From Minisyncoccota bacterium (GTDB taxonomy: Bacteria; Patescibacteriota; Minisyncoccia; Phycocordibacterales; UBA9973), in contig JBAZXO010000002.1 of the NCBI GenBank assembly GCA_041659785.1, forward strand, positions 1-53,478: DNA of 53,478 nucleotides, written 5' to 3'. Positions 23,673-41,969 of the stretch are shown here, piece by piece. The notes under the pieces were generated by a model. That model was not told where the DNA came from. It worked only from the letters and a program-made list of their open reading frames with translations, and did no database searches. The position numbers and the translations under genes are program-made. Position 1 is the stretch's first letter, and every line of letters begins with the position of its first letter.

Positions 23673-24719
23673 ATGAAACCAATGTCAAGTAAAAAAGCTA
23701 AAGAAATAGACAATACCGATATTAAAAAAACAGAGAGCTCTGATGACTCTTTCTTGGATCAAACACTCCGCCCTACCCACTGGGATGAATATATTGGCCA
23801 AAAGCACATAAAAGATAATGTAAAAATTTTATTAAAGGCCGCAGAAGGACGCGGACATATTCCTGAACACATACTTTTCTATGGACCACCAGGATTAGGT
23901 AAAACAACTCTCGCGCACTTGATTGCAAAAGAAACTGGCCGACAAATGAAAATTACTTCTGGGCCGGCAATAGAAAAAGTCGGAGACCTCGCATCTATTC
24001 TTACAAACTTAGCTGCGGGTGACATTCTTTTTATAGATGAAATTCATAGACTTAATAAAATGGTTGAGGAAATACTTTATCCTGCGATGGAGTCTGGCGT
24101 TTTAGATATTATTATCGGCAAAGGTCCGTCCGCACGAACGATTCAGCTCGACTTACCACCTTTTACTTTAATTGCCGCCACCACTCGCGTAGCAATGGTA
24201 TCTTCCCCATTACGTTCTCGTTTCTCGGGTGGAGTTTTTCGATTAGAATTTTATTCAAACGAAGAAATTGCAAAAATTATAGAAAGATCTAGTAAACTTT
24301 TAAAAATAAAATTAGAAGAAGAAGCATTGAAAGAGATTGCGGAGCGAAGTCGCTTCACCCCTCGTACAGCAAACTACTTTTTAAAACGTTGTCGAGATTT
24401 TGCTCAAGTACACAAAAAAGATTTAGATAAAAAAACAGTCAAAGAAGCCTTAAACATGCTTGCAATTGATAACATTGGCCTAAACTCTTCCGACAGAAAA
24501 TTCTTAGAAATATTAATTGAAAAATTCAAAGGTGGCCCCGTAGGATTAAAAACTATTGGTGCTGCAATGTCCGAAGAAGAAGCCACTGTAGAAGAAGTAA
24601 TAGAGCCATATTTAATACAGCTTGGTCTCCTTGAACGTACGGCTCGCGGAAGAGTAGCCACGACTAAAGCATATGAGCATCTTAAAATTAGTTATAAAGT
24701 AGAAAGTGAAAAGTTGTAA
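23673..24719 (+). CDS. ruvB: Holliday junction branch-migration helicase RuvB
   Basis: LRP, GPPGLGKTTLA, TSGP, FIDEIHR, LRSRF, EPYLIQ.G...RTARGR. Confidence 0.97.
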   Translation: MKPMSSKKAKEIDNTDIKKTESSDDSFLDQTLRPTHWDEYIGQKHIKDNVKILLKAAEGRGHIPEHILFYGPPGLGKTTLAHLIAKETGRQMKITSGPAIEKVGDLASILTNLAAGDILFIDEIHRLNKMVEEILYPAMESGVLDIIIGKGPSARTIQLDLPPFTLIAATTRVAMVSSPLRSRFSGGVFRLEFYSNEEIAKIIERSSKLLKIKLEEEALKEIAERSRFTPRTANYFLKRCRDFAQVHKKDLDKKTVKEALNMLAIDNIGLNSSDRKFLEILIEKFKGGPVGLKTIGAAMSEEEATVEEVIEPYLIQLGLLERTARGRVATTKAYEHLKISYKVESEKL

Positions 24720-24786
24720 AGTAAATGCAAAATAAAAAATTTAATATATAATCTTTATAACTTTATGAACCTTATAACTTTCAACT
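24690..24786 (+). repeat. 8/9-nt repeat element, both arms, no cargo (ruvB-yebC)
   Basis: AAGT-type arm 24690-24722 overlaps ruvB end; ACTT-type arm 24753-24786 before yebC ATG. Confidence 0.8.
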
Positions 24787-24792
24787 AAACTT

Positions 24793-25329
24793 ATGTCAGG
24801 ACATAATAAGTGGGCACAAATAAAACACAAGAAAGCAATTACTGACTCAAAGAAAAGTAAGATTTTTTCTAAACTTGTACGTTTTATTTCTGTAGAAGCA
24901 AAACTCTCAGGGGGCAAAGAATCTCCCGGACTTCGTGCCGCCATAGAAAAAGCAAGAAAAGTAAATATGCCGGGAGATGTAATAGAAAGAGCTATTAAAA
25001 AAGGAAGTGAGCCATCTTCACATATGGATATGATAACTTATGAAGCGCACGGCCCAGGTGGAGCAGGAATTATTATCGAAACTCTGACAGATAGCAAAAA
25101 CAGGACTGCTCAAGACATAAAACACATTCTTACAAAAAATGGTTTCGCCTTAGGGGCTATTGGCTCTGCATCTTGGGCATTTAGAAAAGAAAAAACCCCC
25201 GAAGGACTTGTTTGGATACCAAATAGCTCTGTTCCCCTTTCTGATGAAGACCTAGAACTACTAGATAAACTAATAGAAGATATCGAAGAAAACGACGACG
25301 TGCAGGATGTTTATACTAATGCGGAATAA
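24793..25329 (+). CDS. yebC: YebC/PmpR family protein (short form)
   Basis: MSGHNKWAQIKHKK, TYEAHGPGG, DDVQDVYTN. Confidence 0.95.
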   Translation: MSGHNKWAQIKHKKAITDSKKSKIFSKLVRFISVEAKLSGGKESPGLRAAIEKARKVNMPGDVIERAIKKGSEPSSHMDMITYEAHGPGGAGIIIETLTDSKNRTAQDIKHILTKNGFALGAIGSASWAFRKEKTPEGLVWIPNSSVPLSDEDLELLDKLIEDIEENDDVQDVYTNAE

Positions 25330-25788
25330 ATAGGCAAAAGAAAAAGCCACCAGTGTTTTTCTTATAAATAAAAAAATCTTAATGACTTCAGATAGGTGGG
25401 GGAGGCCTCTCAAAACCTCCCCCTGTCTCTTCTCTTTTTTTCCTTTTCCCTGGCCCTTTTGGAGGCCGTACCTAAGTGCCGCTACGGCTCCCAAGAACAC
25501 CGGTGAATTTTTTCATGAATCCTCCAGAATAACTTGAAGCTTAGCTTCAAGTTGATTATGAGGCCACGCGGAAAGTTGCCGTGGTTGCTCAAAAATTAAA
25601 AAATAAAGAACGAAGTAAATTGATGCAAACAAAAGGGCAGCGGGAGGAGATTGGTTGTCCCCTCCCTGACACAACCCTACCGGAAAACCCTCCGGCCAAA
25701 CACATACAAAGGACTGTGCTTTCTTTAAAATACTACTTCTGCCATGAATGTCAATTAAAATATCCACACACTATGTTAAACTTATATC

Positions 25789-26268
25789 ATGAGAATTTTA
25801 GGAATAGATCCAGGATATGAACGCCTCGGTGTCGCCATATTAGAAAAAAATAGGGGGGATAAAAAAGAAACTGTAATTTTTTCAGAATGTTTTAAAACTT
25901 CCGCTAAATTAGAATTTAATGAACGATTACTTTTAATCGGTGAAGAAGTAAAAAAAATAATAAAAAAATACAAACCAGAAGTTCTTTCGATAGAAACTTT
26001 GTTTTTAACTACCAACCACAAAACAGTCATGCACGTAGCTGAAGCACGTGGTGTGGTAATTTATGAAGCCACAGCCGCTCGACTTAAAATATTTGAAGCC
26101 TCCCCTCCCCAAATAAAAATAGCCACGACCGGTTATGGCAAAGCGAACAAAGAACAAATAATAAAAATGGTAAAAATATTAGTTGATATAGACCCCGCAA
26201 AAAAATCTGACGATGAATTAGACGCTATTGCTATCGCTATTACAGCCTTGGCGCATATGAGAAATTAA
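25789..26268 (+). CDS. ruvC: Holliday junction resolvase RuvC
   Basis: ILGIDPG, SIETLF, EARGV, DDELDAIAIA. Confidence 0.95.
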   Translation: MRILGIDPGYERLGVAILEKNRGDKKETVIFSECFKTSAKLEFNERLLLIGEEVKKIIKKYKPEVLSIETLFLTTNHKTVMHVAEARGVVIYEATAARLKIFEASPPQIKIATTGYGKANKEQIIKMVKILVDIDPAKKSDDELDAIAIAITALAHMRN

Positions 26269-26290
26269 AAGCTCGCTCGCCTTATGCGAG

Positions 26291-26299
26291 TTATCCACA
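26291..26299 (+). promoter_or_regulatory. Perfect DnaA box
   Basis: TTATCCACA. Confidence 0.5.
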
Positions 26300-26397
26300 T
26301 TTGCTATTGCCAATGCTTTCATATTTTGTTACAAAAGAGGAAATTAAAGGATATTTGTTTTTGGTCGCTTATTAAAAATAAAAAATATAATAAAAAT

Positions 26398-26526
26398 ATG
26401 CGTGACGAGGATGAGGAGATAGATGAAGGAGGTTTTAAAATGGATCTAGATGATGATCTGGATCTTCCTCCCGAAGATATGACCGACTTCGGCTTAGACG
26501 AAGAAGACCCAGATAGAGATAGTTAA
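26398..26526 (+). CDS. Small hyper-acidic protein (42 aa)
   Basis: MRDEDEEIDEGGFKMDLDDDLDLPPEDMTDFGLDEEDPDRDS; 21 of 42 residues D/E; followed by a terminator. Confidence 0.7.
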   Translation: MRDEDEEIDEGGFKMDLDDDLDLPPEDMTDFGLDEEDPDRDS

Positions 26527-26534
26527 GAATAAAA

Positions 26535-26567
26535 TTAAAAAACCCACCAATATGGTGGGTTTTTTAA
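26535..26567. terminator. Bidirectional intrinsic terminator
   Basis: TTAAAAAACCCACCA-ata-TGGTGGGTTTTTTAA between convergent genes. Confidence 0.85.
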
Positions 26568-27734
26568 TTATTTTATTTTTATAAATTTATGTTTCCCAAT
26601 TTTATAAACATGACCTTTAGCAACCACCTCCTCTAAAATTAATTTTTTATTGTCAGTCATATCTTTAATCGCTCCTGCTTCAAACAAACGTCGAATTTCT
26701 CCTTTCGAATCAAACATTCTAGCTTTTAGAAGTATTGGGGTAAGCAACCCCTCTCCTTCTATTTCTTCTACTATTTCTGGAATTTCTTTCTTTTGAAAAG
26801 TATTTACGAAGTTTTCTTGCGCCTCTTTAGCCTTTTTCTCTCCGTGGTAAATCTTTACTATTTCATAAGCAAGGTGCATTTTTGCATCACGAGGATTCAT
26901 TTGGTTTATCTTGTTTACTTCATCCATGGGAACACGAGTACAAATCTCAAAAGCTGATGAAATCAAAGAATCGGGCCAACTCATAACTTTACCAAACATA
27001 TTCTCTCCACCGTCTTCCAAGGTAACCATATTACCTTCACTTTTCCCCATTTTTTTACCAGTAGGATCTACTAAAAGCTTAGTGGTTAAAACATATTTTT
27101 CTTTTCCTCGACTTTTCATCATCGTACGTCCAACAAGCATATTAAAGGTTTGGTCATTACCACCTATTTCCATATCCACATTCATGGCAACAGAATCATA
27201 TCCTTGCATAAGTGGATAAAAAAATTCATGTAAGTATACTGGTTGTCCTTCTTTTATTCTTCTTTCAAACATATCTCTTTCAATCATTTGCTGAAGAGTA
27301 AACTCTGAAGCAATTTCCATCACTTCTTCAAAGGAAAGTTTGGAGAGCCATTTGCTATTAAATTTAACTTGAACATTTTTGATATCCAAAATTTTACCGG
27401 CTTGTTTAGTATATGATTTTAAATTTTCTTTTATTTCTTTTGTCGAAAGTTGTTTTCTGGTTGCTGTTTTATCTGTAGGGTCACCTATCCTGCCCGTAAA
27501 ATCACCAATAAGTAAAATTACTTTATGTCCCAGGTCTTGTAGCTCTCTTAATTTAAGAAGAGTGGAACCATGACCAATATGAAGAGTGGGCCCAGTAGGA
27601 TCAATACCGTTATATACAGAAAGAACCTTGCCAGACTGAAGGACTTTCTTTAATTCTTCTTTAGAGGGGTAGATATTCTCTACGCCGCGTTCTAAAAAAT
27701 TATTTATTTTTTTCTCATCTGTTATCACTTTCAT
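26568..27734 (-). CDS. tyrS: Tyrosine--tRNA ligase
   Basis: GIDPTGPTLHIGH (HIGH), YPLMQGYD, GGNDQTFN, KKMGKS (KMSKS), C-terminal S4. Confidence 0.97.
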   Translation of the reverse strand: MKVITDEKKINNFLERGVENIYPSKEELKKVLQSGKVLSVYNGIDPTGPTLHIGHGSTLLKLRELQDLGHKVILLIGDFTGRIGDPTDKTATRKQLSTKEIKENLKSYTKQAGKILDIKNVQVKFNSKWLSKLSFEEVMEIASEFTLQQMIERDMFERRIKEGQPVYLHEFFYPLMQGYDSVAMNVDMEIGGNDQTFNMLVGRTMMKSRGKEKYVLTTKLLVDPTGKKMGKSEGNMVTLEDGGENMFGKVMSWPDSLISSAFEICTRVPMDEVNKINQMNPRDAKMHLAYEIVKIYHGEKKAKEAQENFVNTFQKKEIPEIVEEIEGEGLLTPILLKARMFDSKGEIRRLFEAGAIKDMTDNKKLILEEVVAKGHVYKIGKHKFIKIK

Positions 27735-27772
27735 GCTCGAATTATAACATATTTACTGATATAATTAGAACA
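27735..27772. promoter_or_regulatory. Back-to-back leaderless extended -10 promoters
   Basis: - strand TG-T-TATAAT 6 nt before tyrS ATG; + strand TG-A-TATAAT 7 nt before PBP ATG. Confidence 0.65.
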
Positions 27773-30319
27773 ATGGACGAAATAATAAAAGAATTAAGAA
27801 GTATATTCAAAAACAAAAAGTTAGTAAAAAATATAGCACTATTGTGTGCAAGTATTTTTATTTTAGGGTCTGGGGTAATAGTAGTTTTGTTATTTTCTTT
27901 GCAAATTCCTGATTTTCATTCTTTTGGCGACAGAAAAGTTGTGAACTCTACTCAAATATATGATCGCACAGGGAAAATTTTGCTCTACGATATACATCAA
28001 GACACAAAAAGAACAGATATTTCTTTCGAACAAATGAGTCTAAATATAAAGAACGCAACCGTTGCAATTGAAGATTCTGAATTTTATACCCATGGTGGAA
28101 TAAGAATAACTTCTATTGTGCGAGCTCTCCTTTCTAATTTATTTGGTTTTGGTATAGGGGGCGGAGGTTCGACAATCACTCAACAATTAGTAAAAAATAC
28201 TCTATTAACACAAAGTAGTGGCTTGGGTAAGTATATTAGAAAAGTTAAAGAGTGGGTTCTAGCAATAAAAATAGACAGGGCTATGCCAAAAGAGAAAATC
28301 TTGGAAGCATATTTAAATGAAGTTCCTTATGGAGGAAATGTTTACGGAGTAGAAGCGGCAAGTAAAACTTACTTCAACAAAGATGCTCAGGATTTAACAT
28401 TGGCAGAATCAGCATACCTAGCATCAATACCTCAATCCCCCACAATGCTTTCTCCTTATGGAAAAAATAGAAACAAACTAGAAGAAAGAAAAAATCTAGT
28501 TCTTTCTAGAATGCTAGAACTAAAATTCATCACGAAAGACGAATACAATAAAGCAAAATCCGAAGTGGTCACATTTATTCCACAAGCAACGATGGGCATC
28601 AAGGCAGCACACTTTGTTTTTTTTATTAAAGATTATTTAGAACAAAAATATGGATCTAGTGTAATTGATAATGGTGGGCTAAAAGTTACTACGACTATTG
28701 ATGCAGACCTACAAGCGAAAGGTGAAGAAATTGTAAAAGAAGGTGCACTTAAAAATGAAAAAGATTGGAACGGAAAAAATGCAGGTTTAATAGCCATAGA
28801 CCCTAAAACAGGCCAAATTTTAACAATGGTGGGTTCAAGAGATTATTTCGACAAAACAATTGATGGTAATTTCAACATAACGACCGCCACTAGGCAGCCA
28901 GGGTCCTCTTTTAAGCCTTTTATTTACGCCACAGCCTTTAATAAGGGCTTTACTCCTGAAACAGTACTCTTTGACCTACCTACAGAATTTCAAACAACCT
29001 GTGACGCTTATGGAAAGGCTCTAGGAGGACACAACCAGAAAGATTGTTATATGCCGGATGATTTCGATGGAAAATTCCGTGGACCAATGAGCTTAAGAGA
29101 TGCACTCGCTCAATCAATAAACATTCCGGCGGTAAAACTTTTCTATTTAGCAGGCCTTCCTGACTCACTCAAAACAGCAGAAGACATGGGGATCACTACA
29201 TTAAAAAATATTGGACAATATGGATTAACGCTCGTTATCGGAGGCGGAGAAGTATCTCTCTTGGATATGACTTCAGCTTATGGAGTTTTTGCAAACAGCG
29301 GTGCAAGAAATCCATATACTGGAATTTTGAAAGTTGAAGACCTAAGTGGAAAAGTTTTAGAAGAATTTCAACCAAGAACAGAGGAAGTTTTACCGAAAAA
29401 TTCTGCTTTAACTATTTCTGATATTTTATCAGATAATAGAGCTCGCATACCAACCTTTGGAGCAAATTCAGTTCTTCAAATACCTGGAAGAAATGTCGCA
29501 GTAAAAACAGGAACAACAAACAATGCCAAAGATGCTTGGACCATAGGATATACTCCATCTATCGTAGTAGGTGTCTGGGCAGGAAATAATGAAAACACTC
29601 CTATGAAAAAAGGAGGTGCGGCAGTAGCAGGACCAATCTGGAATAAATTTATAACTGAAGCATTAAAAACCCTACCAAATGAAAGTTTTGAAAAACCAGA
29701 CACGGAGGTTGATATCACAAAAGTAAAACCAGCTCTTCGTGTTTTTTGGCAAGGAAATGAAAACTTTTTTATAGATAAAATTTCAGGTAAATTGGCCACC
29801 GAATTTACGCCCAAGGAAACACTTCAAGAAAAAGTAATTACAAACGTTCATTCAATTTTATATTGGGTAGACAAAAGAGATATTTTAGGAGCACCACCCG
29901 TTAATCCTCAGAATGATTCTCAGTTTAACCACTGGGAAATTCCAGTACAAAATTGGTGGGCACAGAACAAAGGAAAATACCCTGTCACAACATGGAGTGA
30001 AAAACCTGCTCTTACGGATGACGTACACACAAGTGCTAATCAACCCGTAGTATCAATCCTAGAACCAAACAGTGAGACCACCTACACCTCTGATCAAAAA
30101 ATAAATTTAAAAATTTCCAGCTCTGGTCGTTTTCCTTTGCAAAAAATGGATATTTTTATAAATGATATTTACCTAGAAACGATAGACGCACCATTTAATT
30201 TTTCTTTTTCGGGAAAAGATTTAGAAAATTTAAAAAGTGACAATGAATTAAAAATAATATCTTACGACACAGCCTTCAACCGCAACCAAACAATTACAAC
30301 CTTTAAAGTACAGCAATAA
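27773..30319 (+). CDS. Class A penicillin-binding protein (PBP1A family) with C-terminal Ig-like domain
   Basis: N-terminal TM; IEDSEF and GGSTITQQLVKN transglycosylase; GSSFKP, SIN, KTGT transpeptidase motifs. Confidence 0.95.
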   Translation: MDEIIKELRSIFKNKKLVKNIALLCASIFILGSGVIVVLLFSLQIPDFHSFGDRKVVNSTQIYDRTGKILLYDIHQDTKRTDISFEQMSLNIKNATVAIEDSEFYTHGGIRITSIVRALLSNLFGFGIGGGGSTITQQLVKNTLLTQSSGLGKYIRKVKEWVLAIKIDRAMPKEKILEAYLNEVPYGGNVYGVEAASKTYFNKDAQDLTLAESAYLASIPQSPTMLSPYGKNRNKLEERKNLVLSRMLELKFITKDEYNKAKSEVVTFIPQATMGIKAAHFVFFIKDYLEQKYGSSVIDNGGLKVTTTIDADLQAKGEEIVKEGALKNEKDWNGKNAGLIAIDPKTGQILTMVGSRDYFDKTIDGNFNITTATRQPGSSFKPFIYATAFNKGFTPETVLFDLPTEFQTTCDAYGKALGGHNQKDCYMPDDFDGKFRGPMSLRDALAQSINIPAVKLFYLAGLPDSLKTAEDMGITTLKNIGQYGLTLVIGGGEVSLLDMTSAYGVFANSGARNPYTGILKVEDLSGKVLEEFQPRTEEVLPKNSALTISDILSDNRARIPTFGANSVLQIPGRNVAVKTGTTNNAKDAWTIGYTPSIVVGVWAGNNENTPMKKGGAAVAGPIWNKFITEALKTLPNESFEKPDTEVDITKVKPALRVFWQGNENFFIDKISGKLATEFTPKETLQEKVITNVHSILYWVDKRDILGAPPVNPQNDSQFNHWEIPVQNWWAQNKGKYPVTTWSEKPALTDDVHTSANQPVVSILEPNSETTYTSDQKINLKISSSGRFPLQKMDIFINDIYLETIDAPFNFSFSGKDLENLKSDNELKIISYDTAFNRNQTITTFKVQQ

Positions 30320-30320
30320 A

Positions 30321-30578: not shown

Positions 30579-30579
30579 A

Positions 30580-31677: not shown

Positions 31678-31915
31678 ATGTTTGTTTATATCTTCTATAT
31701 ATAATTTATTAATAATATTAGTTCTGTTGATAAGTGGATAAGTTTTTTTAATATTGTTTTGTAATACTTTTTTGGTTTTTTAATTTATTTTAAAACTTAA
31801 TAACTTTTTTTAATTTATTTTAATTATTTTTTATTATTATAAACTTCTTTTTTATAAATCTTTACTAACTTCCCCCACACTACTTATTAATTCTTTCTTA
31901 ACTTATTATTAACAG
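31678..31915. other. Candidate oriC (dnaA-dnaN intergenic)
   Basis: Extremely AT-rich; overlapping DnaA-box variants TGTTGATAA (31725-33) and AGTGGATAA (31733-41). Confidence 0.6.
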
Positions 31916-33256
31916 CTATTTAAACATAATTCTTATTTGTTCTAATTCTTGAATTAACTGCGAATCATTTTTTAAATCAGCTTTAATCTTTACACATGAG
32001 TGCATCACTGTGGTGTGGTCCTTCCCTCCTAGTTTTTGTCCTATTAAAGGATAAGACACACTAAAGTCCTCCCGGAGTAGATACATTATTATTTGTCGGG
32101 CTTTTACTATTTCTTTTTTTCTAGTTTTTTCATAAACAGATGCTTCTTCTAGTTTATAATAATCTGCCACAATTTTTACAACATCTTTAATCGCCATATT
32201 CTTTTTAGGCTTCATGTTGTTTTTTAGAAGGTTTTTTACTTCCAAAAGCGTAGGAGCTTTATTTTTCAAGCGATATTGGCAAACAATGAGGTTTAAGCTT
32301 CCCTCAAGCTCCCTGATATTTCCTTGCATTGCGCCAGCAACATACTCAACTAAGTCGTCCTCTAAAACAATATTAAGCTCTCGAAGCTTAACCTTTATAA
32401 TCGCGAGCCTGGACTCATATTCTGGTTCAGAGATATCGACTATCATTCCTGCAGCAAAGCGTGATTTAAGGCGGTCTGCGAGCTCTGGGATGTAGTTAGG
32501 GTGCTTATCAGAAGAAAAAATAATTTGCTTATTGTTTTCATAAAAAGTATTAAACGTATGGAAAAGTTCTTCTTGAATTTTTTCCATTTTTCCTATGAAC
32601 TGTATGTCGTCTATGATTAGAAGATCATATTTTCTATATTTTTCTTTAAAAGAGTTTGCTTTATTGCTTTGAAGTGAATTAATAAAGTCAGTTGCAAACT
32701 TTTCTAGGGTCATATAATGCACCTTTTTATCAGGATATTTGTCTTTTATTGAATTTCCTACTGCTTGGATCAAGTGAGTCTTCCCTAAACCAGTGCCTCC
32801 ATAAATAAAAAATGGATTGTATTTAGTTCCAGGAGACTCGATGATTGCTTGAGATGCCGCATAAGCGAGTTCGTTGAAGGCTCCGACGATAAAAGAGTTG
32901 AATTGGTACCTTGGGTTGAGGTTGTCTCCTGGATTTATATACAAATCCCTTAAAGGCAGCTCTTTTTCTACGGTTTCGTTTATTGTGATAATTTCTTGTT
33001 TAGGATTTTCTATTTTTGTAATGGTATATTCCACAGCCCGCATGTTTTCATAGGCTTCTGCTATGGTTTTAGTTATGAGTTTGTGGTATTTGTTCATGAG
33101 CCAGTCACGTACAAATTCGTTTGGGACGCCAATATAAATAATACCAGTTTCCTCTTTAACAATAGAGGTATTTTTGAACCAGGTGCTGAAGTTTGCTTTT
33201 GACATTCCTGCTTCAATCTTCAATAAACAATTTTTCCACAACTGTTTCGTATTCAT
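31916..33256 (-). CDS. dnaA: Chromosomal replication initiator DnaA
   Basis: LNPRYQFNSF, YNPFFIYGGTGLGKTHL, LIIDDIQF, RLKSRF, GGKDHTTVMH. Confidence 0.98.
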   Translation of the reverse strand: MNTKQLWKNCLLKIEAGMSKANFSTWFKNTSIVKEETGIIYIGVPNEFVRDWLMNKYHKLITKTIAEAYENMRAVEYTITKIENPKQEIITINETVEKELPLRDLYINPGDNLNPRYQFNSFIVGAFNELAYAASQAIIESPGTKYNPFFIYGGTGLGKTHLIQAVGNSIKDKYPDKKVHYMTLEKFATDFINSLQSNKANSFKEKYRKYDLLIIDDIQFIGKMEKIQEELFHTFNTFYENNKQIIFSSDKHPNYIPELADRLKSRFAAGMIVDISEPEYESRLAIIKVKLRELNIVLEDDLVEYVAGAMQGNIRELEGSLNLIVCQYRLKNKAPTLLEVKNLLKNNMKPKKNMAIKDVVKIVADYYKLEEASVYEKTRKKEIVKARQIIMYLLREDFSVSYPLIGQKLGGKDHTTVMHSCVKIKADLKNDSQLIQELEQIRIMFK

Positions 33257-33388: not shown

Positions 33389-33454
33389 CCCGAATCTCGA
33401 AGGCCGGATGAGGTGAATTTGATTTATTGTTGGTTTTATTATAGACTTTATTAT

Positions 33455-33589
33455 ATGTCACAAACATACCAACCTAAAAAGAGAAAAAGAGCCCGAGCCC
33501 ATGGGTTTTTGGTTAGATCAAGAATAAAGACTGGTAAAAAGGTCTTAAAAAGAAGACGCCAAAAAGGTAGGGCTAAACTTTCAGTTTAA
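33455..33589 (+). CDS. rpmH: 50S ribosomal protein L34
   Basis: [18 protein letters not shown]...RRRQKGR; start moved to ATG 33455. Confidence 0.96.
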
Positions 33590-33668
33590 GTTATCAAGTT
33601 TGTAATGTTGAAAGTTTTTAAAGTAATAATTAATCTTTATGAACTTTATAACTTTTTACTTTATAACT
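33588..33668 (+). repeat. 8/9-nt repeat element, both arms, no cargo (rpmH-rnpA)
   Basis: AAGT-type arm 33588-33624; ACTT-type arm 33635-33668. Confidence 0.8.
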
Positions 33669-33675
33669 ATTAAGT

Positions 33676-34231: not shown

Positions 34232-34261
34232 TTTTTTGTTGTTTTAATATAGAATGGGGTA

Positions 34262-34987
34262 ATGCTTTCAAGTATTTGGAATATCGTTCTATATCATCCA
34301 TTATTAAACGCCCTAGCTTTTTTGGTATCTATTATACCTGGTGGGGACGTTGGTATTGCTGTTATAGTCCTCACTATCCTTGTTAAAATCATCCTCTTTC
34401 CTTTATCTCAGAAATCCATAGAAAGTCAGGCGGAGATGAATATTTTGACTCCTGAGATTAATAAAATCAAAACGAGCGGTGCTTCTAAAGAAGAGCAAGC
34501 ACGTCTTACTTTCGAACTTTATAAAAAACACAACACAAATCCATTTTCAGGATGTCTTTTAGTCTTAATTCAGATCCCTGTTATCTTCGCTTTGTATTAT
34601 GTATTTCTAAAAGGAATAAAATTTGACGGAGTCTTGTACTCTTTTATTCACGTACCCGCTCATGTAAATATGATTTTCCTTGGTTTTCTTGATATAACTC
34701 AAAAGAGCTTAGTATTAGCAATTTTGGCTGGTGTTTCTCAATATCTACAAGCACACTATATGCCTAAGCCTCCCACCCCTGCCCCAGGTGCCAGTGCTTC
34801 TTTCGCTGATAGCTTTACAAAGAGTATGAGCATGCAAATGAAATATATTTTCCCATTTATTATTGCTTTTATTGCTTACAGCATTTCTGGTGCTGTCGCT
34901 TTGTATTGGATTACCAGCAATCTTTTTATGGTGGGTCAACAGATTTATGTTAAAAGAGAGAAGAATTTTAAAATAGTTATAAAGTAA
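34262..34987 (+). CDS. yidC: Membrane protein insertase YidC (short, Oxa1-like)
   Basis: LTILVKIILFPL, LYKKHNTNPFSGCL..LIQIPV, ALYWITSNLF. Confidence 0.95.
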   Translation: MLSSIWNIVLYHPLLNALAFLVSIIPGGDVGIAVIVLTILVKIILFPLSQKSIESQAEMNILTPEINKIKTSGASKEEQARLTFELYKKHNTNPFSGCLLVLIQIPVIFALYYVFLKGIKFDGVLYSFIHVPAHVNMIFLGFLDITQKSLVLAILAGVSQYLQAHYMPKPPTPAPGASASFADSFTKSMSMQMKYIFPFIIAFIAYSISGAVALYWITSNLFMVGQQIYVKREKNFKIVIK

Positions 34988-35008
34988 AAAGTTATAAAGT
35001 TCATAAAG
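34975..35008 (+). repeat. 8/9-nt repeat element, solo 5' arm (yidC-jag)
   Basis: AGTTATAAAGTAAAAAGTTATAAAGTTCATAAAG spans the yidC stop. Confidence 0.8.
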
Positions 35009-35013
35009 AATTT

Positions 35014-35496
35014 ATGAAAAAGGAAGAGATTCAAAATTTAATAAAAGAATTAATAGAGAAAACCACAGTAAAATTAAACGAAATTTCAGTTGTTGAAGAT
35101 GGCCCTAAAAATTTATGGGTTTCTCTGGAGGTGAATGAACCACATTTTTTTATTTCACGCGAGGGTGAAGGCTTGCATGCTTTGAGTCATCTTGTGCATC
35201 GAATTATTGAATCAAAGTCTTCTCCAAAATCTGGATTAGGAGAAAGAAATGAATCAGGCTTAGGAATTATCATAGATGTAAATGGTTTTCAAAAGAAACA
35301 CGTCGAGAGTATCCGTGCCATAGCTCACATGATGTCTGAAAGAGCACGATATTTTAAATCTAATATAGAAGTTGACCCAATGTCTGCTTTTGAACGCAGA
35401 ATTGTTCATGAGTTTTTATCTGATGCAAGTGACCTCAAAACTGAATCCATGGGTATGGGGCGCGATCGTCGTGTTGTTATTAAATACATTGGCTAA
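35014..35496 (+). CDS. jag: Jag/KhpB-like KH-R3H RNA-binding protein
   Basis: ISREGEGLHAL KH-like motif, IDVNGF, PMSAFERRIVH R3H motif; follows yidC. Confidence 0.88.
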   Translation: MKKEEIQNLIKELIEKTTVKLNEISVVEDGPKNLWVSLEVNEPHFFISREGEGLHALSHLVHRIIESKSSPKSGLGERNESGLGIIIDVNGFQKKHVESIRAIAHMMSERARYFKSNIEVDPMSAFERRIVHEFLSDASDLKTESMGMGRDRRVVIKYIG

Positions 35497-35511
35497 AATA
35501 TATAGGTCTAA

Positions 35512-35583
35512 ACCTCACCCCGTCTCGCAAGCGAGCCACCCCTCTCCATTTTAGAAAATGGAGAGGGGAAAAAGGGGTGAGGT
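35512..35583. repeat. Palindromic mini-element, CCCCTCTCC/GGAGAGGGG family
   Basis: CCCCTCTCCATTTT/AAAATGGAGAGGGG stem; 35516-35544 is the exact reverse complement of 50159-50187 inside rsmA. Confidence 0.85.
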
Positions 35584-35587
35584 GCAT

Positions 35588-36982
35588 TTATTTTAATCCT
35601 AACTCCCACAAGAAAGAATCTTTTTTGTTTACAAAAAATAGGTAATTTTCTCCATCATCCAATGCAAGTTTAATGCTGTCTGTGTCTTGTCCTCCTTGCA
35701 CAGTTACTGGGTCTGCAATTATTGTGGCATTTCCAGTTTTAATATCTATTTTCCAAATTTGATCTGAGAAAGAAACTTCTCCTTGATACCAAGTATCTGG
35801 ATAGCTCCCCGCGTTAATATTTTTAGGTACTCCGCAATAAGCAGTGTCACTTGTTTTATTCCAGACACATTTTTCTGGTAAAGTTTTCACTCCGAGTGGG
35901 TCTGTTGTTTTTGTGTCTGTGTGATAAACATTGAGAAATAAATTATTATCACTATATAGAACTAATTTTCCACTAGGACTTGTTAGTGTGGTGAGTCCAT
36001 TTATACCTCCTAATACTTTGGTTAAATTTTTATTAGTTGGATCCATCATATACATATATCCTTGTACGCTAGAGGCGGGCTTAGTGGTGAAGGTAATCAT
36101 TTTACTATTGGGCCACCAAGATAACCATTCTGTAAATGCTGAACTGAAAACTTGAACTTTCTTATTAGTTGCGAAGTTTAGAGTCGTCCCTATCATATTA
36201 TCTCCAGAGTTAAATAAATAGAATAAACTTCCAGCATCAGAAGACAGGCTTACATCTTTTATATCATCAGGTAAGAATGTTCCCTTTACTTCATTGCTGC
36301 TCGTTGTGTCTGCGCCCAATATTTCTTTAGGAAGATTACCAACAAAAGTAGCAATTGTTTTAGCATCCCCTTTTAAATATCTCATTATCACCGAGCCTCC
36401 ATTGTTGCCAAAGAAAACTTCGTATATTTTAGGAATTATTGTTATGGAAAATTTCTGTTCGAGGATTCTGTCTGCAAAAGTTTGATAGATGTTTCCCGTA
36501 GCTCTCTCTACGTATCTCAATGCAGGCATAAATTCAGTTGGTGGAGCAATTGGTTTTACTAAAGTCTTTTTTAGACCCCCCGCACCCCCCTTAGCAGGGG
36601 GGACAGGATTAGCTCCCTCTCCTGATAAGGGGAGGCTGGGAGGGGTTGTATTGTTTGGTGTTACTACAGGGACATCTTTTAATCTTTCTTTAGAAAATAC
36701 AGTAAATCCAGCTATAGGCATACTAGAAATTTTTCTTAATTTTACTAGTAAGTCTGGATTTGTGGGAGTTGGTTCATATCCAGAAACATCTACTGGAGGA
36801 GTAACTGCTGGAGTTACTGGTTTGTTGTTATTTCCAAATGGATTAAATTGGGAACCAAAATTTGTGCCACCCGTGTCAACGCCCAGTGTGCCTGTTGGTT
36901 GCTGTAAATATAAAAATCCAAATACCCCAACTACAACGATGGCTAGAATGATTATTAAAAGTATAAAGTTTCTTTTTGACAT
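35588..36982 (-). CDS. Membrane-anchored exported protein, possible beta-propeller
   Basis: N-terminal TM, Pro-rich linker, repeated S.D/W.P strand motifs; carries a palindromic insertion at 36576-36645. Confidence 0.6.
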   Translation of the reverse strand: MSKRNFILLIIILAIVVVGVFGFLYLQQPTGTLGVDTGGTNFGSQFNPFGNNNKPVTPAVTPPVDVSGYEPTPTNPDLLVKLRKISSMPIAGFTVFSKERLKDVPVVTPNNTTPPSLPLSGEGANPVPPAKGGAGGLKKTLVKPIAPPTEFMPALRYVERATGNIYQTFADRILEQKFSITIIPKIYEVFFGNNGGSVIMRYLKGDAKTIATFVGNLPKEILGADTTSSNEVKGTFLPDDIKDVSLSSDAGSLFYLFNSGDNMIGTTLNFATNKKVQVFSSAFTEWLSWWPNSKMITFTTKPASSVQGYMYMMDPTNKNLTKVLGGINGLTTLTSPSGKLVLYSDNNLFLNVYHTDTKTTDPLGVKTLPEKCVWNKTSDTAYCGVPKNINAGSYPDTWYQGEVSFSDQIWKIDIKTGNATIIADPVTVQGGQDTDSIKLALDDGENYLFFVNKKDSFLWELGLK

Positions 36983-37001
36983 ATTGTTTTAATTTTATTT
37001 A

Positions 37002-38243
37002 TTAGCATCCATCTTTAGCAATTTGTGCTTTTATTTGAGTCATTCTATTTATTACACTATCCCCATAAAATTCATTTGGCGGTTGTCTACCAGCTTGACA
37101 GGCAACACCAGAGTAATATTTACAGGCAGCGTTTCTGGGATCATTAATTGCACCGATATTTTTTAAATATACACCCGCTGTCATTAATGCGTCGTTAGTG
37201 TTCCACGGATTTTTTCCACTGCCACCATTGGCTAGCCATGTTGTAGGACGAAATTGCATAAGTCCTATAGCACCCCCATGACCACCGCCACTAGCACACG
37301 ATACATAAGTAGTACTCATATTATTACTACCCACAATGGCTTCTAAAGCTTTTTTATCTTCAGGAAACATGTTTGCATTAGCAGGAAGACATCCCCCAGT
37401 GTTTGCTCCTCCACCTGTTTCTTGGGCAAATATAGCTAAAATAAAAGCTTTATCTACTCCAGTGCTTGCTTGAGCAGCTGTTGCTGCAGGACAAGCTTCT
37501 GCTTTAAAGTTAACTTTACTAGGTTTTCCATCACGACTTAGTGCCCCAGAAATTTGGAAATCCTTTATAGTTACCTCAACCTTCACATCTGTTAAACTAT
37601 TTAAGTCAGTTTTTAAAATATCAGGATTTATCGTGTACAGAAGAGTGTAAGCACCAAGAGCCAAAAGAAGACCAAAAATTGCATTTCTTATTCTTTCTTT
37701 TCCATGTTCTTTGTTTGAGATTAGTTCACTCGTCATATATTCTATTCCACCTATGACAATCATTATCACAGCAAAGACTGCACAAACACCAATAAATATT
37801 CTTATAATCATATTTAAATAATCACCCAGTTTATTATTGTTGGCAGTGCTACTTGTAGGGTCATAAGTTCTTAAGGTATGGGTCTGGGGATCACATCCAG
37901 GGGTGCTAACATCACAAGGTAACGGAGCTAAAAAATTATAATAAGCTTGCCAAGATGCTCCAGTTACAGTTTTGCATTCTTTTTCTGTAACATTATTAAT
38001 TGTTGTTTCCCCAACGGGAAAAACACAGTTTCCTTTTGGTTCGGGTGTGTTTGGTGTTGTGGAGGTTGGAGTGGGCGTAGGGGTTGGATTTGTGGTTGGG
38101 GTGTTACATCCAATTGGTATAGGTATTGGTGTGCCACTACTGCTGTCTGTCCCCGTACAAGGGAATGCGTGTATAGATAATATTGGAATAAATATTCCAA
38201 TTAGTACAATAAGTATTAAAATGTATGGTGAAATTTTTTTCAT
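37002..38243 (-). CDS. VirB2/TrbC-like pilin fused to lytic-transglycosylase-like domain
   Basis: Signal peptide; two-TM pilin block IIRIFIGV...IGGIEYMTS...KERIRNAIFGLLLALGAYTLLYTINP; C-terminal AIFAQET...GAIGLMQF.P.TW...NPWN..DA lysozyme-fold motifs; start moved to 38243. Confidence 0.75.
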   Translation of the reverse strand: MKKISPYILILIVLIGIFIPILSIHAFPCTGTDSSSGTPIPIPIGCNTPTTNPTPTPTPTSTTPNTPEPKGNCVFPVGETTINNVTEKECKTVTGASWQAYYNFLAPLPCDVSTPGCDPQTHTLRTYDPTSSTANNNKLGDYLNMIIRIFIGVCAVFAVIMIVIGGIEYMTSELISNKEHGKERIRNAIFGLLLALGAYTLLYTINPDILKTDLNSLTDVKVEVTIKDFQISGALSRDGKPSKVNFKAEACPAATAAQASTGVDKAFILAIFAQETGGGANTGGCLPANANMFPEDKKALEAIVGSNNMSTTYVSCASGGGHGGAIGLMQFRPTTWLANGGSGKNPWNTNDALMTAGVYLKNIGAINDPRNAACKYYSGVACQAGRQPPNEFYGDSVINRMTQIKAQIAKDGC

Positions 38244-38244
38244 T

Positions 38245-39234
38245 TTAAAATTGTAAATTAATTTCTCCGCTAGCATTTCCAGTAAGTTTATATATATTTT
38301 CAATATCAAGTTTTACTTTAGATGTTCCAGAAACCCCAGCCTGAATTTTAAGAGGTATTAAATTTTTTATAATACCAATTGAGGTAGCTACTGAAGTGTC
38401 GTTAATAGACCATGTCCAATTAAGTAGAGGGGTTCTTATGTCGCCTGGAGAGATAAAGTACGGTACAGCCTCTAGCGTAGTATCGCCAAGGATTTTATAT
38501 CCATCAAAAAGTGCTTGTTCCCAAAGTGTACCCATGTATATATTATTTATATAGAATAAAATTTTAGGTTGAGTCATTCCTATATCAATGCTTGCGTTCG
38601 AAGAAATATTTTGGCTGATTGTTGACGCAGTTACGCTAATATTATTTGAATTTTCTAAATAATCATTGACATAAGTAAAAGAATTTTTACCATACCCAGA
38701 ACCATCTACATTATTGGTGTAATCTTTTTTCCAAGAATAAGTCATGGTTTTAGGATTTACCAAACCAGCACCCGATTTTATTTCAGGCATAGCCACTACT
38801 TTTACAGAACTGTCGGCTGAAGGCATTGCTTTACCTTTATAAAATGGTGGTACATAAGAATCTTGTGCTTGCCAAAGCAACACCATTACCGAAGGTTTTA
38901 TTGTCATGTTTGTATTTACTGTGCCGTCTGGTAGATTTATTGTAGCTACGACGCTTGTATTCCCCCCCGCATTGGGAGCATTTAGAGAAAAAGTTTTCTT
39001 ACCAATTCCAGAAGAAATATTTTTTCCATTAACAGACCAAGAAATTAGAACACTGTCTAGATTATTAGCATAACTATTTAAGGTAATATTTACATTTTCA
39101 TTAGGTGCCGGATTTTCTGGTGACATATTAACTAAAATACTACTAGATGAAGCAGCATTTGCTTTAAAAGGTAAATTTATTCCCAGTATTGCAACAAATA
39201 TAGTTAAATATAGTAATAAAAATTTAAACTTCAT
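38245..39234 (-). CDS. Exported protein with Ig/PKD-like domains
   Basis: Signal peptide; repeated ISWSVNG, YSWKKD, WTWSIND strand motifs. Confidence 0.6.
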   Translation of the reverse strand: MKFKFLLLYLTIFVAILGINLPFKANAASSSSILVNMSPENPAPNENVNITLNSYANNLDSVLISWSVNGKNISSGIGKKTFSLNAPNAGGNTSVVATINLPDGTVNTNMTIKPSVMVLLWQAQDSYVPPFYKGKAMPSADSSVKVVAMPEIKSGAGLVNPKTMTYSWKKDYTNNVDGSGYGKNSFTYVNDYLENSNNISVTASTISQNISSNASIDIGMTQPKILFYINNIYMGTLWEQALFDGYKILGDTTLEAVPYFISPGDIRTPLLNWTWSINDTSVATSIGIIKNLIPLKIQAGVSGTSKVKLDIENIYKLTGNASGEINLQF

Positions 39235-39254
39235 ACACTCTAATTATATCATAT

Positions 39255-39292
39255 CTACTTTATAAACTTGATAACTTTAAACTTTATAACTC
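39255..39292 (-). repeat. 8/9-nt repeat element, solo 5' arm (after virB4)
   Basis: - strand GAGTTATAAAGTTTAAAGTTATCAAGTTTATAAAGTAG. Confidence 0.8.
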
Positions 39293-39311
39293 CCAAATAA
39301 AACCTATGTTT

Positions 39312-41159
39312 TTATTTGGTGGCTGTTGCTGCCTCTGCTTGCTCTTCTTTGGCTTTTTTGTTGGATAATATTTGTGAAGGATCAGAAGTAATGATTTGGT
39401 CTTCAGTGTAAGAAGAAACAATTTTGATAGCGACGTGTTTTAATCCTGCAAAAAAGATTCCTTCTCCTAAACCAGACTCTAATAGTAAGTATTTTTCTTC
39501 ATCTGTAAGGTTGAAAGTTTTCTGTAGAAGGTCGATGGTGGTTGGAGACTGTTTCAAGAGAAGTTGGATTGAAGAGTTTGTAATTATGGGTACTCCATAT
39601 GGGGACTTCATGAAGTCCCCAGCGTCTTGAGTAATAGTAGAAAGCCCTAAATAATATTTTCGGCCTCTTTTAGCTATTGAATACAAGAAAGATGCCGTAT
39701 CTTCAGACTTCATCATCCACCATGCTTCGTCCACTACGAGTAAGCGTTTTTTTAAGTTTTTACGAATAGCATTCCATATGTAATGCATGATGATATACAT
39801 TGCTACTGGTTTAAGCTCGTCTTCCATGTCACGAACAGAGAAAACAACAAATTTTTTATTTATATCCACATTGGAAGGTCTATTTAAGAATGTTGCCCAA
39901 GAACCTCGTGTATATTTCGCGAGTCGTGCAACGACTGAGTCACTCCCCTCCATGCCTGAAAGCACCATTTCCATATCTGAGAGGAGTGGAGGTTCTATGT
40001 TAGAGAAATCTGACTCCGGAGTGATGTCTTTTATGGCATAAGTCTCTGAGATGGCTCGGTCCACCATGGAATCTTCTTCTGGAGTGAGTCCACCTAGCAT
40101 GAGTCTAAAGAGTCCGACTAGGTTAATGATGTTTGAACGAAGGACATCTTCGGCAGTTTCATCTTCGCGAGGTATCGGTAAATCGAAAGGATTTAAATGG
40201 TGGTCCGAAGAAAGTGAAATGTTAAAATATCTTCCACCGACAGCTTCAGCCAAGAATTCATATTCTCGCTCTGGGTCTATCACGATGACGTCTGTATCAA
40301 ACATGAGTGACCTTAGAATTTCTAATTTTGTAGCATAAGATTTTCCTGAACCAGACTTGGCGAAGGTTACAGAATTGTAATTTTCTAATGAAAATCTGTC
40401 GAAAATAACTAAACTAGAATTGTGTCTATTGATACCATAAAGTATTCCTTTATCAGAAGTGAGGTCAGAAGATATAAAAGGAAAGACACTCGAAAGCGGT
40501 TCCGAATTTAATTTTTGATGGATATTTAATAAGTCTGTCTCTATTGGGATGACGCTCTTGAAGCCTTCTTCTTGTTGGAAAAGGGCTGGTTTTATATAGA
40601 TGAGTTTAGATTCAAGCATTGATTTTATCTCATTTTCTATCTTGAAGAGCTCGAGATCGTTGTCTGCATATATTGTGATATAAATACCTACATCAAACAT
40701 TTTTTCTTGAGCTTGGATCAGATTATCACGGAGACCTTCTAAGTCTTGGTATGCTGTATCTAGCATTGGATCTCGGACCATACCTTTTGATTCTCGGACA
40801 TTTATCTGACTTTGAACTTCGGCGACTTTTTTCTGAAATTGCCTAAGCATTAATGATGTATCTATTGGATGAACAAAAATTGAAATATCAAAAATTTTAT
40901 CCAAGTTAATTATTGGAGAAAACCAATTATCTGTTAGAAATCTAGGATAAGATATTATGAAAAATGTTCGAGCTATTTTGTCACCAAGGTTTATAGATTT
41001 GGGGTCAATCTTGAGGGCTGAGGGGGCGATGACGTCTTGGAGTTCCAAGTTTGCAGATTCGTAAATTTTTTCTGGCAAAATAGCCAAAACAGAAGCGTTT
41101 GGCTCTTCGTTACTCTTTTTTACTCCAAATAATTTTTTTATATCATCTAAAATACTCAT
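39312..41159 (-). CDS. virB4: VirB4/TraC-like secretion ATPase
   Basis: Walker A AKSGSGKS, VIDPEREY, LNPFD, Walker B LLVVDEAW, KRGRKY..GL..ITQ. Confidence 0.88.
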   Translation of the reverse strand: MSILDDIKKLFGVKKSNEEPNASVLAILPEKIYESANLELQDVIAPSALKIDPKSINLGDKIARTFFIISYPRFLTDNWFSPIINLDKIFDISIFVHPIDTSLMLRQFQKKVAEVQSQINVRESKGMVRDPMLDTAYQDLEGLRDNLIQAQEKMFDVGIYITIYADNDLELFKIENEIKSMLESKLIYIKPALFQQEEGFKSVIPIETDLLNIHQKLNSEPLSSVFPFISSDLTSDKGILYGINRHNSSLVIFDRFSLENYNSVTFAKSGSGKSYATKLEILRSLMFDTDVIVIDPEREYEFLAEAVGGRYFNISLSSDHHLNPFDLPIPREDETAEDVLRSNIINLVGLFRLMLGGLTPEEDSMVDRAISETYAIKDITPESDFSNIEPPLLSDMEMVLSGMEGSDSVVARLAKYTRGSWATFLNRPSNVDINKKFVVFSVRDMEDELKPVAMYIIMHYIWNAIRKNLKKRLLVVDEAWWMMKSEDTASFLYSIAKRGRKYYLGLSTITQDAGDFMKSPYGVPIITNSSIQLLLKQSPTTIDLLQKTFNLTDEEKYLLLESGLGEGIFFAGLKHVAIKIVSSYTEDQIITSDPSQILSNKKAKEEQAEAATATK

Positions 41160-41167
41160 TTTTTTAT

Positions 41168-41209
41168 CTTTACTTTATAAACCTTACAACTTTACAAACT
41201 TTATAACTA
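41168..41209 (-). repeat. 8/9-nt repeat element, solo 5' arm (before virB4)
   Basis: - strand TAGTTATAAAGTTTGTAAAGTTGTAAGGTTTATAAAGTAAAG. Confidence 0.8.
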
Positions 41210-41848
41210 CTATTCCAGCTTTATTTTACCTTCTATTTCCCCTGGATTGAAAACTTTATAAAATACTTCCACCACTTCTTCAGTACCGAGCTGAGCTGAA
41301 TTTATACCACAACGACTAAGTCCTTGCTGTATTACGGCTACCCTCTCCTCTAATTGGGATCTCTTTTCTTCAAAAGCCACTTTCTTTGCTGCTTTAATTT
41401 CTGCTGAATTTTTTCTTGAGAATATTTTATCAATTATTCCAGAGTCTGATTTTAGAGCAGTGTGTGTATAAGGTACAACAATAAAAAAGCTTTTGGTCAT
41501 TATGGCGACAGTATCAGTGAAGTTTTTAATGAATTCTATATATTCTCTGGTTTGTAATTTTAGAAGAGGTTCATTTTGTACCTTGATTCTGTTCTCCAAG
41601 AGAAGTAGATATGGCCTGATGTCTAATCTTCTGGACTGGATTGATATCTGTATTGAAAAATCTAAGGTATTTAGAAAGTTTTGGAATTGCATTATTGTTG
41701 CTTTTTGTTCATCGGCAGATTTTAAAGAAAGATTTATAGAATTTGCCAATACAATTGCACGCAATTCGTCGTTTTTCAGCACGACTATTCCGTCGCGTAC
41801 TTCTTTGATTGGTATGAATTCTTGTGTTGCTTTTGCGTTTAATGCCAT
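41210..41848 (-). CDS. TraC/VirB4 N-terminal-like protein
   Basis: IKEVRDGIVV, NLSLKSADEQ, FLNTLDF.IQI.IQSR; sits between prgI-like and virB4. Confidence 0.65.
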   Translation of the reverse strand: MALNAKATQEFIPIKEVRDGIVVLKNDELRAIVLANSINLSLKSADEQKATIMQFQNFLNTLDFSIQISIQSRRLDIRPYLLLLENRIKVQNEPLLKLQTREYIEFIKNFTDTVAIMTKSFFIVVPYTHTALKSDSGIIDKIFSRKNSAEIKAAKKVAFEEKRSQLEERVAVIQQGLSRCGINSAQLGTEEVVEVFYKVFNPGEIEGKIKLE

Positions 41849-41850
41849 AC

Positions 41851-41969
41851 AGTTAGTTCATAAAGTTATAAAGTTCATAAAGTGTAAAGTTGTATTTTTT
41901 AAATTGTGAAATTGAATTTATTTGCATTGTATTTACTTGATAACATTATAACTTTTTACTTTATAACTC
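41851..41969 (-). repeat. 8/9-nt repeat element, both arms, no cargo (prgI-traC-like)
   Basis: AAGT-type arm 41933-41969 overlaps prgI stop; ACTT-type arm 41851-41892; 41852-41883 identical to 42411-42442. Confidence 0.85.

Follow-up and report, generated by a model that had tools for sequence, protein, structure and literature searches.

Intervening sequences (IVSs) of rRNA with an S23p open reading frame (ORF) have been known since about 1990, and to our knowledge neither their origin nor their mode of spread nor the function of their protein has an accepted explanation. Here we describe elements of this type in a 53,478-nucleotide stretch of DNA from a Minisyncoccota bacterium (contig JBAZXO010000002.1, positions 1 to 53,478; hereafter the window, or WIN), where arrays of short words occupy six gaps between protein-coding genes and the same words flank a PF05635 (23S_rRNA_IVP) gene nearby.

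The IVSs described from Salmonella, Leptospira and Coxiella burnetii have inverted arms and a loop that may hold a PF05635 gene, occur also in ORF-less forms and show a sporadic, seemingly horizontal distribution (PMC4990558, PMC11270868). In C. burnetii, the S23p ORF is preceded by tandem heptamers (GACAGAT), at the first of which RNase III cleaves, and the protein itself forms a homopentamer (PMC4990558). Inserts with a 23S_rRNA_IVP ORF are also on record in the rRNA of the candidate phyla radiation (CPR; PMC11270868), and 23S_rRNA_IVP genes have been found between cas genes, for example between cmr3 and cmr2 (PMC3936711).

The elements of the window resemble the rRNA IVSs in several respects: their arms are complementary, the gene-bearing copy encodes a PF05635/TIGR02436 protein, short tandem repeats adjoin its ORF, ORF-less copies exist and the distribution is sporadic. 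They differ in that all window copies sit between protein-coding genes and none in rRNA, that one-armed forms exist, and that the arms are arrays of clade-specific 8-9-nt words instead of plain inverted repeats; excision by RNase III is proposed for them by analogy only. Hairpins built of the window's words are nevertheless found in rRNA elsewhere. A genome deposited as an uncultured Saccharibacteria metagenome-assembled genome (L083; L numbers denote stretches from relatives or other genomes) has ORF-less hairpins of AAAGT words in its 23S loops at model positions 583/584 (helix 25) and 1218/1219 (helix 45), which are the classical IVS sites. The complete Campbellbacteria genome CP011215 (L009) has a 111-nt array hairpin in the 23S loop at model positions 282-288, and same-word hairpins lie between tRNA genes in L034 and L037. 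Our preferred explanation, to which we assign a probability of roughly 0.6, is that the six sites descend by decay from cassettes of an IVS-type family that lives in operon gaps, with arms that would pair in RNA and might undergo RNase III-type processing by analogy with rRNA.

A gene-bearing cassette and six sites with its words

We define the 5' arm as words ending in AAAGT and the 3' arm as the complementary ACTTT words, both read along the direction of the flanking genes; g207, g212 and g329 are ORF labels of the window. The features are as follows.

42811-42843, minus strand: 5' arm of the gene-bearing reference cassette, with the same words as the orphan sites
42460-42807, minus strand: cassette cargo, a 115-aa four-helix-bundle protein (PF05635 23S_rRNA_IVP, TIGR02436)
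42410-42451, minus strand: 3' arm of the gene-bearing cassette, sharing 33 identical bp with the 3' arm of the adjacent prgI-g212 copy
41851-41969, minus strand: ORF-less copy at prgI-g212, with 5' arm 41935-41966, 44-nt spacer and 3' arm 41851-41890
41172-41206, minus strand: solo 5'-type arm between g212 (a separate ORF for the VirB4 N-terminal domain) and virB4
39257-39289, minus strand: solo 5'-type arm after virB4 (virB4-g329), in sense AGTTATAAAGTTTAAAGTTATCAAGTTTATAAAGT
34975-35008, plus strand: solo 5'-type arm at yidC-jag, in which two added words follow a first word that is the native-like end of yidC, VIK-stop (TAA at 34985-34987)
33588-33668, plus strand: ORF-less hairpin at rpmH-rnpA, with 5' arm 33588-33624, 9-nt spacer and 3' arm 33634-33668
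24690-24722, plus strand: 5' arm at ruvB-yebC, four words (AGTTATAAAGT AGAAAGT GAAAAGT TGTAAAGT)
24723-24751, plus strand: spacer at ruvB-yebC (AAATGCAAAATAAAAAATTTAATATATAA), resembling in sense the leader, ATG and first ~8 codons of the PF05635 gene
24752-24786, plus strand: 3' arm at ruvB-yebC (TCTTTATA ACTTTATGA ACCTTATA ACTTTCA ACT), ending 6 nt before the yebC ATG at 24793

The full cassette occurs once in the window (42410-42843, minus strand), and its arms pair at -28.7 kcal/mol. Its cargo is matched by Pfam at E 4e-30 and by TIGR02436 at 103.6 bits against a cutoff of 24, and the nearest solved structure is that of the pentameric XCC0516 (PDB 2GSC, E 8e-9). The gene is under purifying selection (dN/dS 0.04-0.15), with dS at about 1 or saturated even between the closest genes. 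Because the words of the orphan sites also flank this gene, the six sites represent cassette arms without the gene. Its neighbourhood, by Pfam, comprises ruvB, yebC, ruvC, dnaN, dnaA, rnpA, yidC, jag and a minus-strand type IV secretion operon.

All six sites listed by the sequence-only reading are present in the window sequence, as is the word AATGCAAA(A)TAAA that it had found in two spacers. Its AAGT/ACTT arms are real, but the unit had been cut too short: the true repeat is an 8-9-nt word ending in AAAGT or starting with ACTTT. Words of the 5' arms include AGTTATAAAGT, AGAAAGT and TGTAAAGT, and those of the 3' arms ACTTTATA and ACTTTATGA. The arms do lie at the junctions, where they had been placed at the upstream stop, but they overlap upstream coding ends (RuvB, yidC) and do not merely adjoin stop codons; the 5' arm at ruvB-yebC contains the last 10 codons of RuvB and its TAA (24717-24719). 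The rpmH-rnpA hairpin (-16.6 kcal/mol) begins within the stop codon of rpmH, and 7 nt separate its end from the ATG of rnpA. The stretch that is identical between the prgI-g212 copy and the cassette also exists, at 33 bp (41851-41883 and 42410-42442) instead of the 32 bp reported, and as a sequence match it suggests recent copying or conversion.

Such arrays do not arise at this frequency in shuffled sequence. The window has 9 arrays of at least three units, whereas 100 first-order shuffles average 0.02, and the two-unit pattern ACTTTATRAACTTTATRA, with up to three mismatches, has 14 matches against 1.2 expected. These counts bear on the idea that the arrays grew by local slippage of word-like, AT-rich native sequence without any mobile cassette. 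Short tandem repeats expand and contract easily, and the native end of yidC (GTTATTAAATAA / GTTATAAAGTAA, VIK-stop) is word-like even in genomes that have no array. Against slippage stand the near absence of arrays from the shuffles, an exact 21-mer common to several phyla and the arrangement of arms in complementary pairs flanking one protein clade. The family-wide version is largely refuted and we give slippage hardly any credence; it could hold only for the growth or shrinkage of individual solo arms.

A weak three-unit array at 31795-31818 (ACTTAATAACTTTTTTTAATTTAT) lies in the 238-nt dnaA-dnaN spacer, which may hold the replication origin, and is probably a chance product of AT-rich sequence. 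DnaA boxes were rejected as an identity for the words, which as 9-mers share only TTAT with the box and occur at numerous operon junctions across many phyla. An identity as CRISPR-like or telomere-like arrays was likewise rejected, since unique spacers are absent and the arrays are paired in inverted orientation. Membership of a known RNA family was rejected as well: in the window, Rfam at gathering score returns only tRNAs.

The minus-strand operon around the cassette has a divided ATPase gene: the 212-aa ORF at 41210-41848 (minus strand) matches the N-terminal domain of VirB4-family ATPases (NCBIfam) and the rest of VirB4 lies at 39312-41159 (minus strand), so that VirB4 is split into two ORFs. 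This split, with a TAATATG junction, is kept across about 80 relatives.

Word type and protein clade

The 80 closest relatives of the window protein (58-90% identity) come from at least 10 phyla, and nearly all lie between AAAGT/ACTTT arrays. Their hosts, as deposited, include Patescibacteria lineages, Bacteroidota (among them the cultured Labilibacter sediminis and Segatella hominis), Omnitrophota, Spirochaetota, Lentisphaerota, Bdellovibrionota and others. Phylogeny of 101 proteins places all 64 AAAGT-armed genes in a single clade (support 99/98), and such arms are found at none of the 21 genes outside it. The TAGGC, AGCTTAT and AATTACGAA word families are each monophyletic despite occurring in the same operon of sister genomes, which indicates that words follow the protein and not the host. 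Arms also pair better with their own partner (-31.4 kcal/mol) than with foreign arms of the same family (-26.0 kcal/mol; 0 of 2000 permutations).

Linkage of word and protein would be expected from shared descent by itself. Judged from divergence, the AAAGT core is nonetheless under selection, since at the dS values given above neutral flanks should be unrecognisable, yet the words persist. Arms mostly comprise 4-5 words spaced 7-9 nt apart, a number compatible with a pentamer, though no proof of one. In one locus (L245, 2410-2950), a protein of the AAAGT clade lies between TTAGGGA / TCCCTAA arms and only two AAAGT words are left by its ATG. Either the cassette was inserted within another hairpin or its arms were swapped, and the case counts against a strict pairing of word and protein.

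These patterns raise the possibility, which we hold only tentatively and put well short of an even chance, that PF05635 pentamers are sequence-specific readers of tandem 8-9-nt words, each clade with a word of its own. The cassette would then recognise itself and spread across phyla through rRNA loops, tRNA spacers and operon gaps, and orphan arrays would be controlled in trans.

The fold is shared with Avd, the accessory protein of diversity-generating retroelements, a PF05635 homologue that forms a basic pentameric four-helix bundle and works with nucleic acid. The window protein differs from it in belonging to the IVS-type clade. No reverse transcriptase and no template or variable repeats were found among the 20 ORFs scanned between 23.6 and 48.9 kb, and the neighbours of the cassette are genes of the type IV secretion system (T4SS).

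Insertion, orientation and proposed decay at operon junctions

To compare junctions with and without arrays, we combined collection scans with 40-80 syntenic relatives per junction; the T4SS set comprised 80 syntenic loci retrieved with VirB4 (75-95% identity). Gaps at the T4SS junctions are trimodal in these 80 loci. Tight junctions have the form TAA-N1-7-ATG. Gaps of 40-135 nt hold inverted or solo word arrays of at least eight families (AAAGT, TAGGC, AATTACGAA, AGCTTAT, GAGTTACGA, AGCTTTCAG, GAATATAGAAT and others), and gaps of 360-500 nt hold a PF05635 gene between word arrays, always on the operon strand. Nine loci have the gene at g207-prgI, L125 and L190 have it at prgI-g212, and L187, L189 and L197 at g212-virB4. 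Relatives thus carry a four-helix gene, with other word families, at two of the six sites that are orphan in the window (prgI-g212 and g212-virB4).

Elsewhere the empty state prevails. The rpmH-rnpA gap measures 1-30 nt in about 45 relatives and holds a window-like hairpin only in L305 and L311; the yidC-jag gap measures 1-7 nt in most relatives, with a similar solo arm in five others; and the ruvB-yebC gap measures 1-20 nt in 17 metagenome contigs, with hairpins of TAGGC words in three. By these sequence comparisons, the junction arrays appear to be inserted and not ancestral. No target-site duplication is visible between filled and empty junctions, where empty sites offer only 1-7 AT-rich bases and arms overlap stop codons.

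The same junctions hold other insertions. Unrelated hairpins of the form CCCGTTAGAAG...CTTCTAACGGG abutting the ATG, or GC-rich palindromes such as TACCCCCTCCTTTCTCCTCCCCCTA...TAGGGGGAGG, occur at prgI-g212 and g212-virB4 (L134, L135, L161) and at yidC-jag and ruvB-yebC (L291, L384, L385, L359, L349); in these genomes, hairpins in general seem to insert preferentially at tight operon junctions. At virB4-g329, seven loci of more distant relatives (L190, L195, L196, L198, L189, L185, L179) have an extra gene for a predicted membrane protein of 117-213 aa that is absent from the window operon. Inserts of 0.5-0.9 kb at virB4-g329 in distant relatives were considered as alternative cargo and rejected, as they encode small membrane proteins of the secretion operon.

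From the fixed polarity of the sites, the sequence-only reading had offered two interpretations, a role at the RNA level (processing, translational coupling or regulon sites for the four-helix protein) or footprints of cargo loss. The latter is supported, both by the four-helix genes at prgI-g212 and g212-virB4 in relatives and by the ruvB-yebC spacer, which keeps the start of the gene. For this spacer (AAATGCAAAATAAAAAATTT...), alignment to the leader, ATG and first ~8 codons of PF05635 genes scores 38, in sense only, against a maximum of 37 in shuffles (0 of 300) and 21 in antisense.

The polarity argument survives in part. For the three complete copies it is uninformative, because a palindrome of the form A...rc(A) reads identically on both strands. 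For gene-bearing cassettes it is real: both neighbours lie on the strand of the gene in 60 of 66 classifiable relatives and on the opposite strand in none of the 66, and every PF05635 gene in the 80 syntenic secretion operons is in sense. Solo arms show a bias only, with the 5' type outnumbering the 3' type 26:13 in unrelated genomes (p = 0.05), and 11:1 at virB4-g329 and 7:1 at g212-virB4 when the junction listings of relatives were counted by eye. Similarly, the absence of arrays from convergent and divergent junctions holds within the window but does not extend to other genomes, where 72 of 85 arrays (85%) lie at co-directional junctions against a background of 83% (p = 0.45); a preference for co-directional junctions was accordingly rejected. 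Arrays are almost never found within long ORFs. The exact 21-mer CTTTATGAACTTTATAACTTT occurs in more than 119 stretches outside the window, from many phyla, and in 119 foreign stretches with this 21-mer the order A..B outnumbers B..A 31:1, from which it follows that the element has a defined architecture.

In the mechanism that we propose, the full element is a promoter-less PF05635 gene between a 5' array of 4-5 AAAGT-ending words and a complementary 3' ACTTT array. It would enter transcription units in sense, in operon gaps, tRNA spacers and the hairpin loops of rRNA. Internal deletion of the gene would leave an ORF-less hairpin, and further loss or slippage a single arm, usually the 5' one, abutting or overlapping the upstream stop codon. 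In the transcript, the arms may pair as an imperfect, AU-rich stem of 30-40 bp that loops out the insert, and RNase III could cut this stem as it does in rRNA IVSs, a step proposed purely by analogy. Copies would then be tolerated intercistronic sites of processing or structure and not required signals. If each protein clade reads its own word, as the co-variation suggests, the resident protein could act in trans on orphan arrays. By analogy with the rRNA elements, an RNA-level role of the arrays is plausible.

Several observations weigh against this account. The three complete ORF-less copies of the window fold weakly (z -1.9, -2.9 and -0.6, the second being the rpmH-rnpA hairpin). A remnant of the gene start is found in one of the three spacers, ruvB-yebC, the match of the prgI-g212 spacer not being significant, and a wider test on ORF-less spacers gave seven usable cases and no trend; with so few cases, the argument from remnants stands on the ruvB-yebC copy. 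Arms pair equally well on the antisense strand (51 better and 49 worse of 101), so that nothing marks selection on sense RNA rather than on DNA, and no sense-strand G·U asymmetry was found as a sign of RNA-level selection. The orphan copies are also better conserved than pure junk should be: the rpmH-rnpA hairpin (among WIN, L305 and L311) and the yidC-jag arm are 83-87% identical between genomes whose flanks are saturated at silent sites, third-position identity in the genes flanking the hairpin being about 0.5. On a tree of DnaA, YidC and Jag, the three hairpin carriers require three changes and the six solo-arm carriers six, and L280, the sister of the window (94% identity), has neither the rpmH-rnpA hairpin nor the yidC-jag arm. 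The flanks of carriers are no more alike than those of non-carriers, which argues against simple allele transfer. Conservation of this kind needs selection, concerted evolution or site-specific re-insertion. There remain repeated site-specific gain (the yidC end being word-like), frequent loss by slippage with conserved survivors, or homogenisation against other copies.

This conservation also speaks for a second explanation, in which the orphan arrays are working cis-sites, the regulon of the resident four-helix protein, which would bind RNA or DNA words and tune the downstream genes. Word type tracks the protein clade, orphan arrays and the gene of the same locus share their words in 7 of the 9 relatives that have both, and the orphan hairpin and solo arm have outlasted the silent sites beside them. 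At virB4-g329, a TGnTATAAT box immediately follows a solo 5'-type arm in 11 relatives, which between them represent four word families, and the usual 4-5 words per arm may be set beside the pentameric state of the protein family (PMC4990558). However, L280 and most relatives have junctions of 1-7 nt without any site, a single junction bears different word families in close relatives, the orphan words of L125 and L126 do not match the local gene, and shared descent with local copying would by itself produce matching words. We regard a regulon as unlikely, although it deserves to be kept in view.

The evenness of the pairing between strands also fits an element that acts as DNA, with arms that are terminal inverted repeats or single-stranded DNA hairpins, comparable to miniature inverted-repeat transposable elements (MITEs) or repetitive extragenic palindromes (REPs) and moved by an unlinked enzyme, while the gene is a passenger and RNA structure irrelevant. 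The spread of the 21-mer over many phyla, the background rate of arrays at divergent and convergent junctions, the scattered presence and absence on the host tree and the fixed A..B order are all in its favour. Yet no transposase, REP-associated tyrosine transposase (RAYT) or integrase recurs beside the arrays, whose only recurrent neighbour is PF05635, no target-site duplication can be seen, and a passenger gene would be expected neither in sense at 60:0 nor with clade-specific words. These points leave the DNA-level explanation improbable, more so than the regulon.

Described elements of this kind lead to the same comparison. Correia/NEMIS of Neisseria, ERIC and RUP are co-transcribed MITEs that are cleaved or bound as RNA hairpins. 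Like them, the copies studied here are small, ORF-less, hairpin-forming and multi-copy, lie between co-transcribed genes and are polymorphic for presence, with inverted terminal arms and empty junctions in most relatives as in MITEs generally. They differ in having tandem words as arms, no visible target duplication and no transposase-bearing parent; the parent carries only the 115-aa four-helix protein. A search for an autonomous transposase parent found PF05635 as the only gene between same-word arms and no transposase domain among the scanned ORFs of the window. From REPs and bacterial interspersed mosaic elements (BIMEs) with RAYT the arrays differ by their AT-rich tandem words, without a GTAG/CGTC tag, and no RAYT-like gene was seen adjoining them.

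Expression and meaning of the cassettes

Three gut or pig-gut metatranscriptomes contain contigs that match the ORF of the Segatella hominis cassette (L244) exactly (for example 2487-2858) and end in both arms; the gene upstream of the cassette is uncovered by these contigs. They show RNA that contains the ORF; as contigs also break at repeats, they are no evidence of processing. The ORF RNA may be separately made or unusually stable.

In the groundwater metagenomes of the source type, contig depth over the arms (window positions 42388-42541 and 41156-41309) is 10-40 times the local level, and many contigs join both arms across short GC-rich loops (for example ACGGACTACTGTAACCGTCCG), joints for which other organisms are a confounding factor. 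This type of community is very rich in ORF-less copies with these arms.

Almost no gene of the window has a Shine-Dalgarno sequence, and in many a TATAAT-like box, often TGnTATAAT, precedes the ATG by 6-10 nt (for example at the starts of 8269-9144, 23673, 26568-27734, 27773, 31916-33256, 38245-39234 and 50843-52384). This sequence pattern suggests that leaderless or near-leaderless mRNAs are widespread. In such an organism the TATAAAGT words could be expression signals, acting as phased -10-like promoters or as AU-rich translation enhancers. The words contain TATAAA, arms end 3-15 nt before start codons, and the Segatella RNA covers the four-helix ORF and leaves the upstream gene bare, all of which would agree. 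Yet the TAGGC, AATTACGAA and GAGTTACGA families occupy the same junctions without any -10-like sequence, hairpins of the same words lie within rRNA and between tRNAs, and sister genomes manage with TAATATG junctions. At virB4-g329, moreover, a separate extended -10 box (TGATATAAT, 39244-39252) lies beyond the array, 9 nt before the g329 ATG. We consider expression signals a very improbable explanation of the arrays, ahead only of slippage.

We return to the reading of the sites as decayed IVS-type cassettes. No published description of operon-gap copies was found in the literature searched by sequence words and family names, most subscription journals lying outside its coverage. A related case is that of the 23S_rRNA_IVP genes in cas operons, where a PF05635 gene is likewise wedged between two operon genes; it was read there as CRISPR-associated, and no flanking arms or ORF-less copies were described (PMC3936711). 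If our reading holds, PF05635 genes inside operons (cas, wzm-wzt, T4SS) should not be annotated as functional partners of their neighbours.

The window and its relatives would thus present an IVS-type element that lives mainly outside rRNA, in ordinary operon gaps, with the full series of decay visible from gene-bearing through ORF-less to one-armed copies. From the fact that word type follows the protein clade, one would expect the protein to bind its own words but no foreign ones. If true, clade-specific reading of words would add, at operon junctions, a level of post-transcriptional (or transcriptional) control that is mobile and exchangeable, and would assign a function to the ORF of rRNA IVSs, which has been without one for 30 years.

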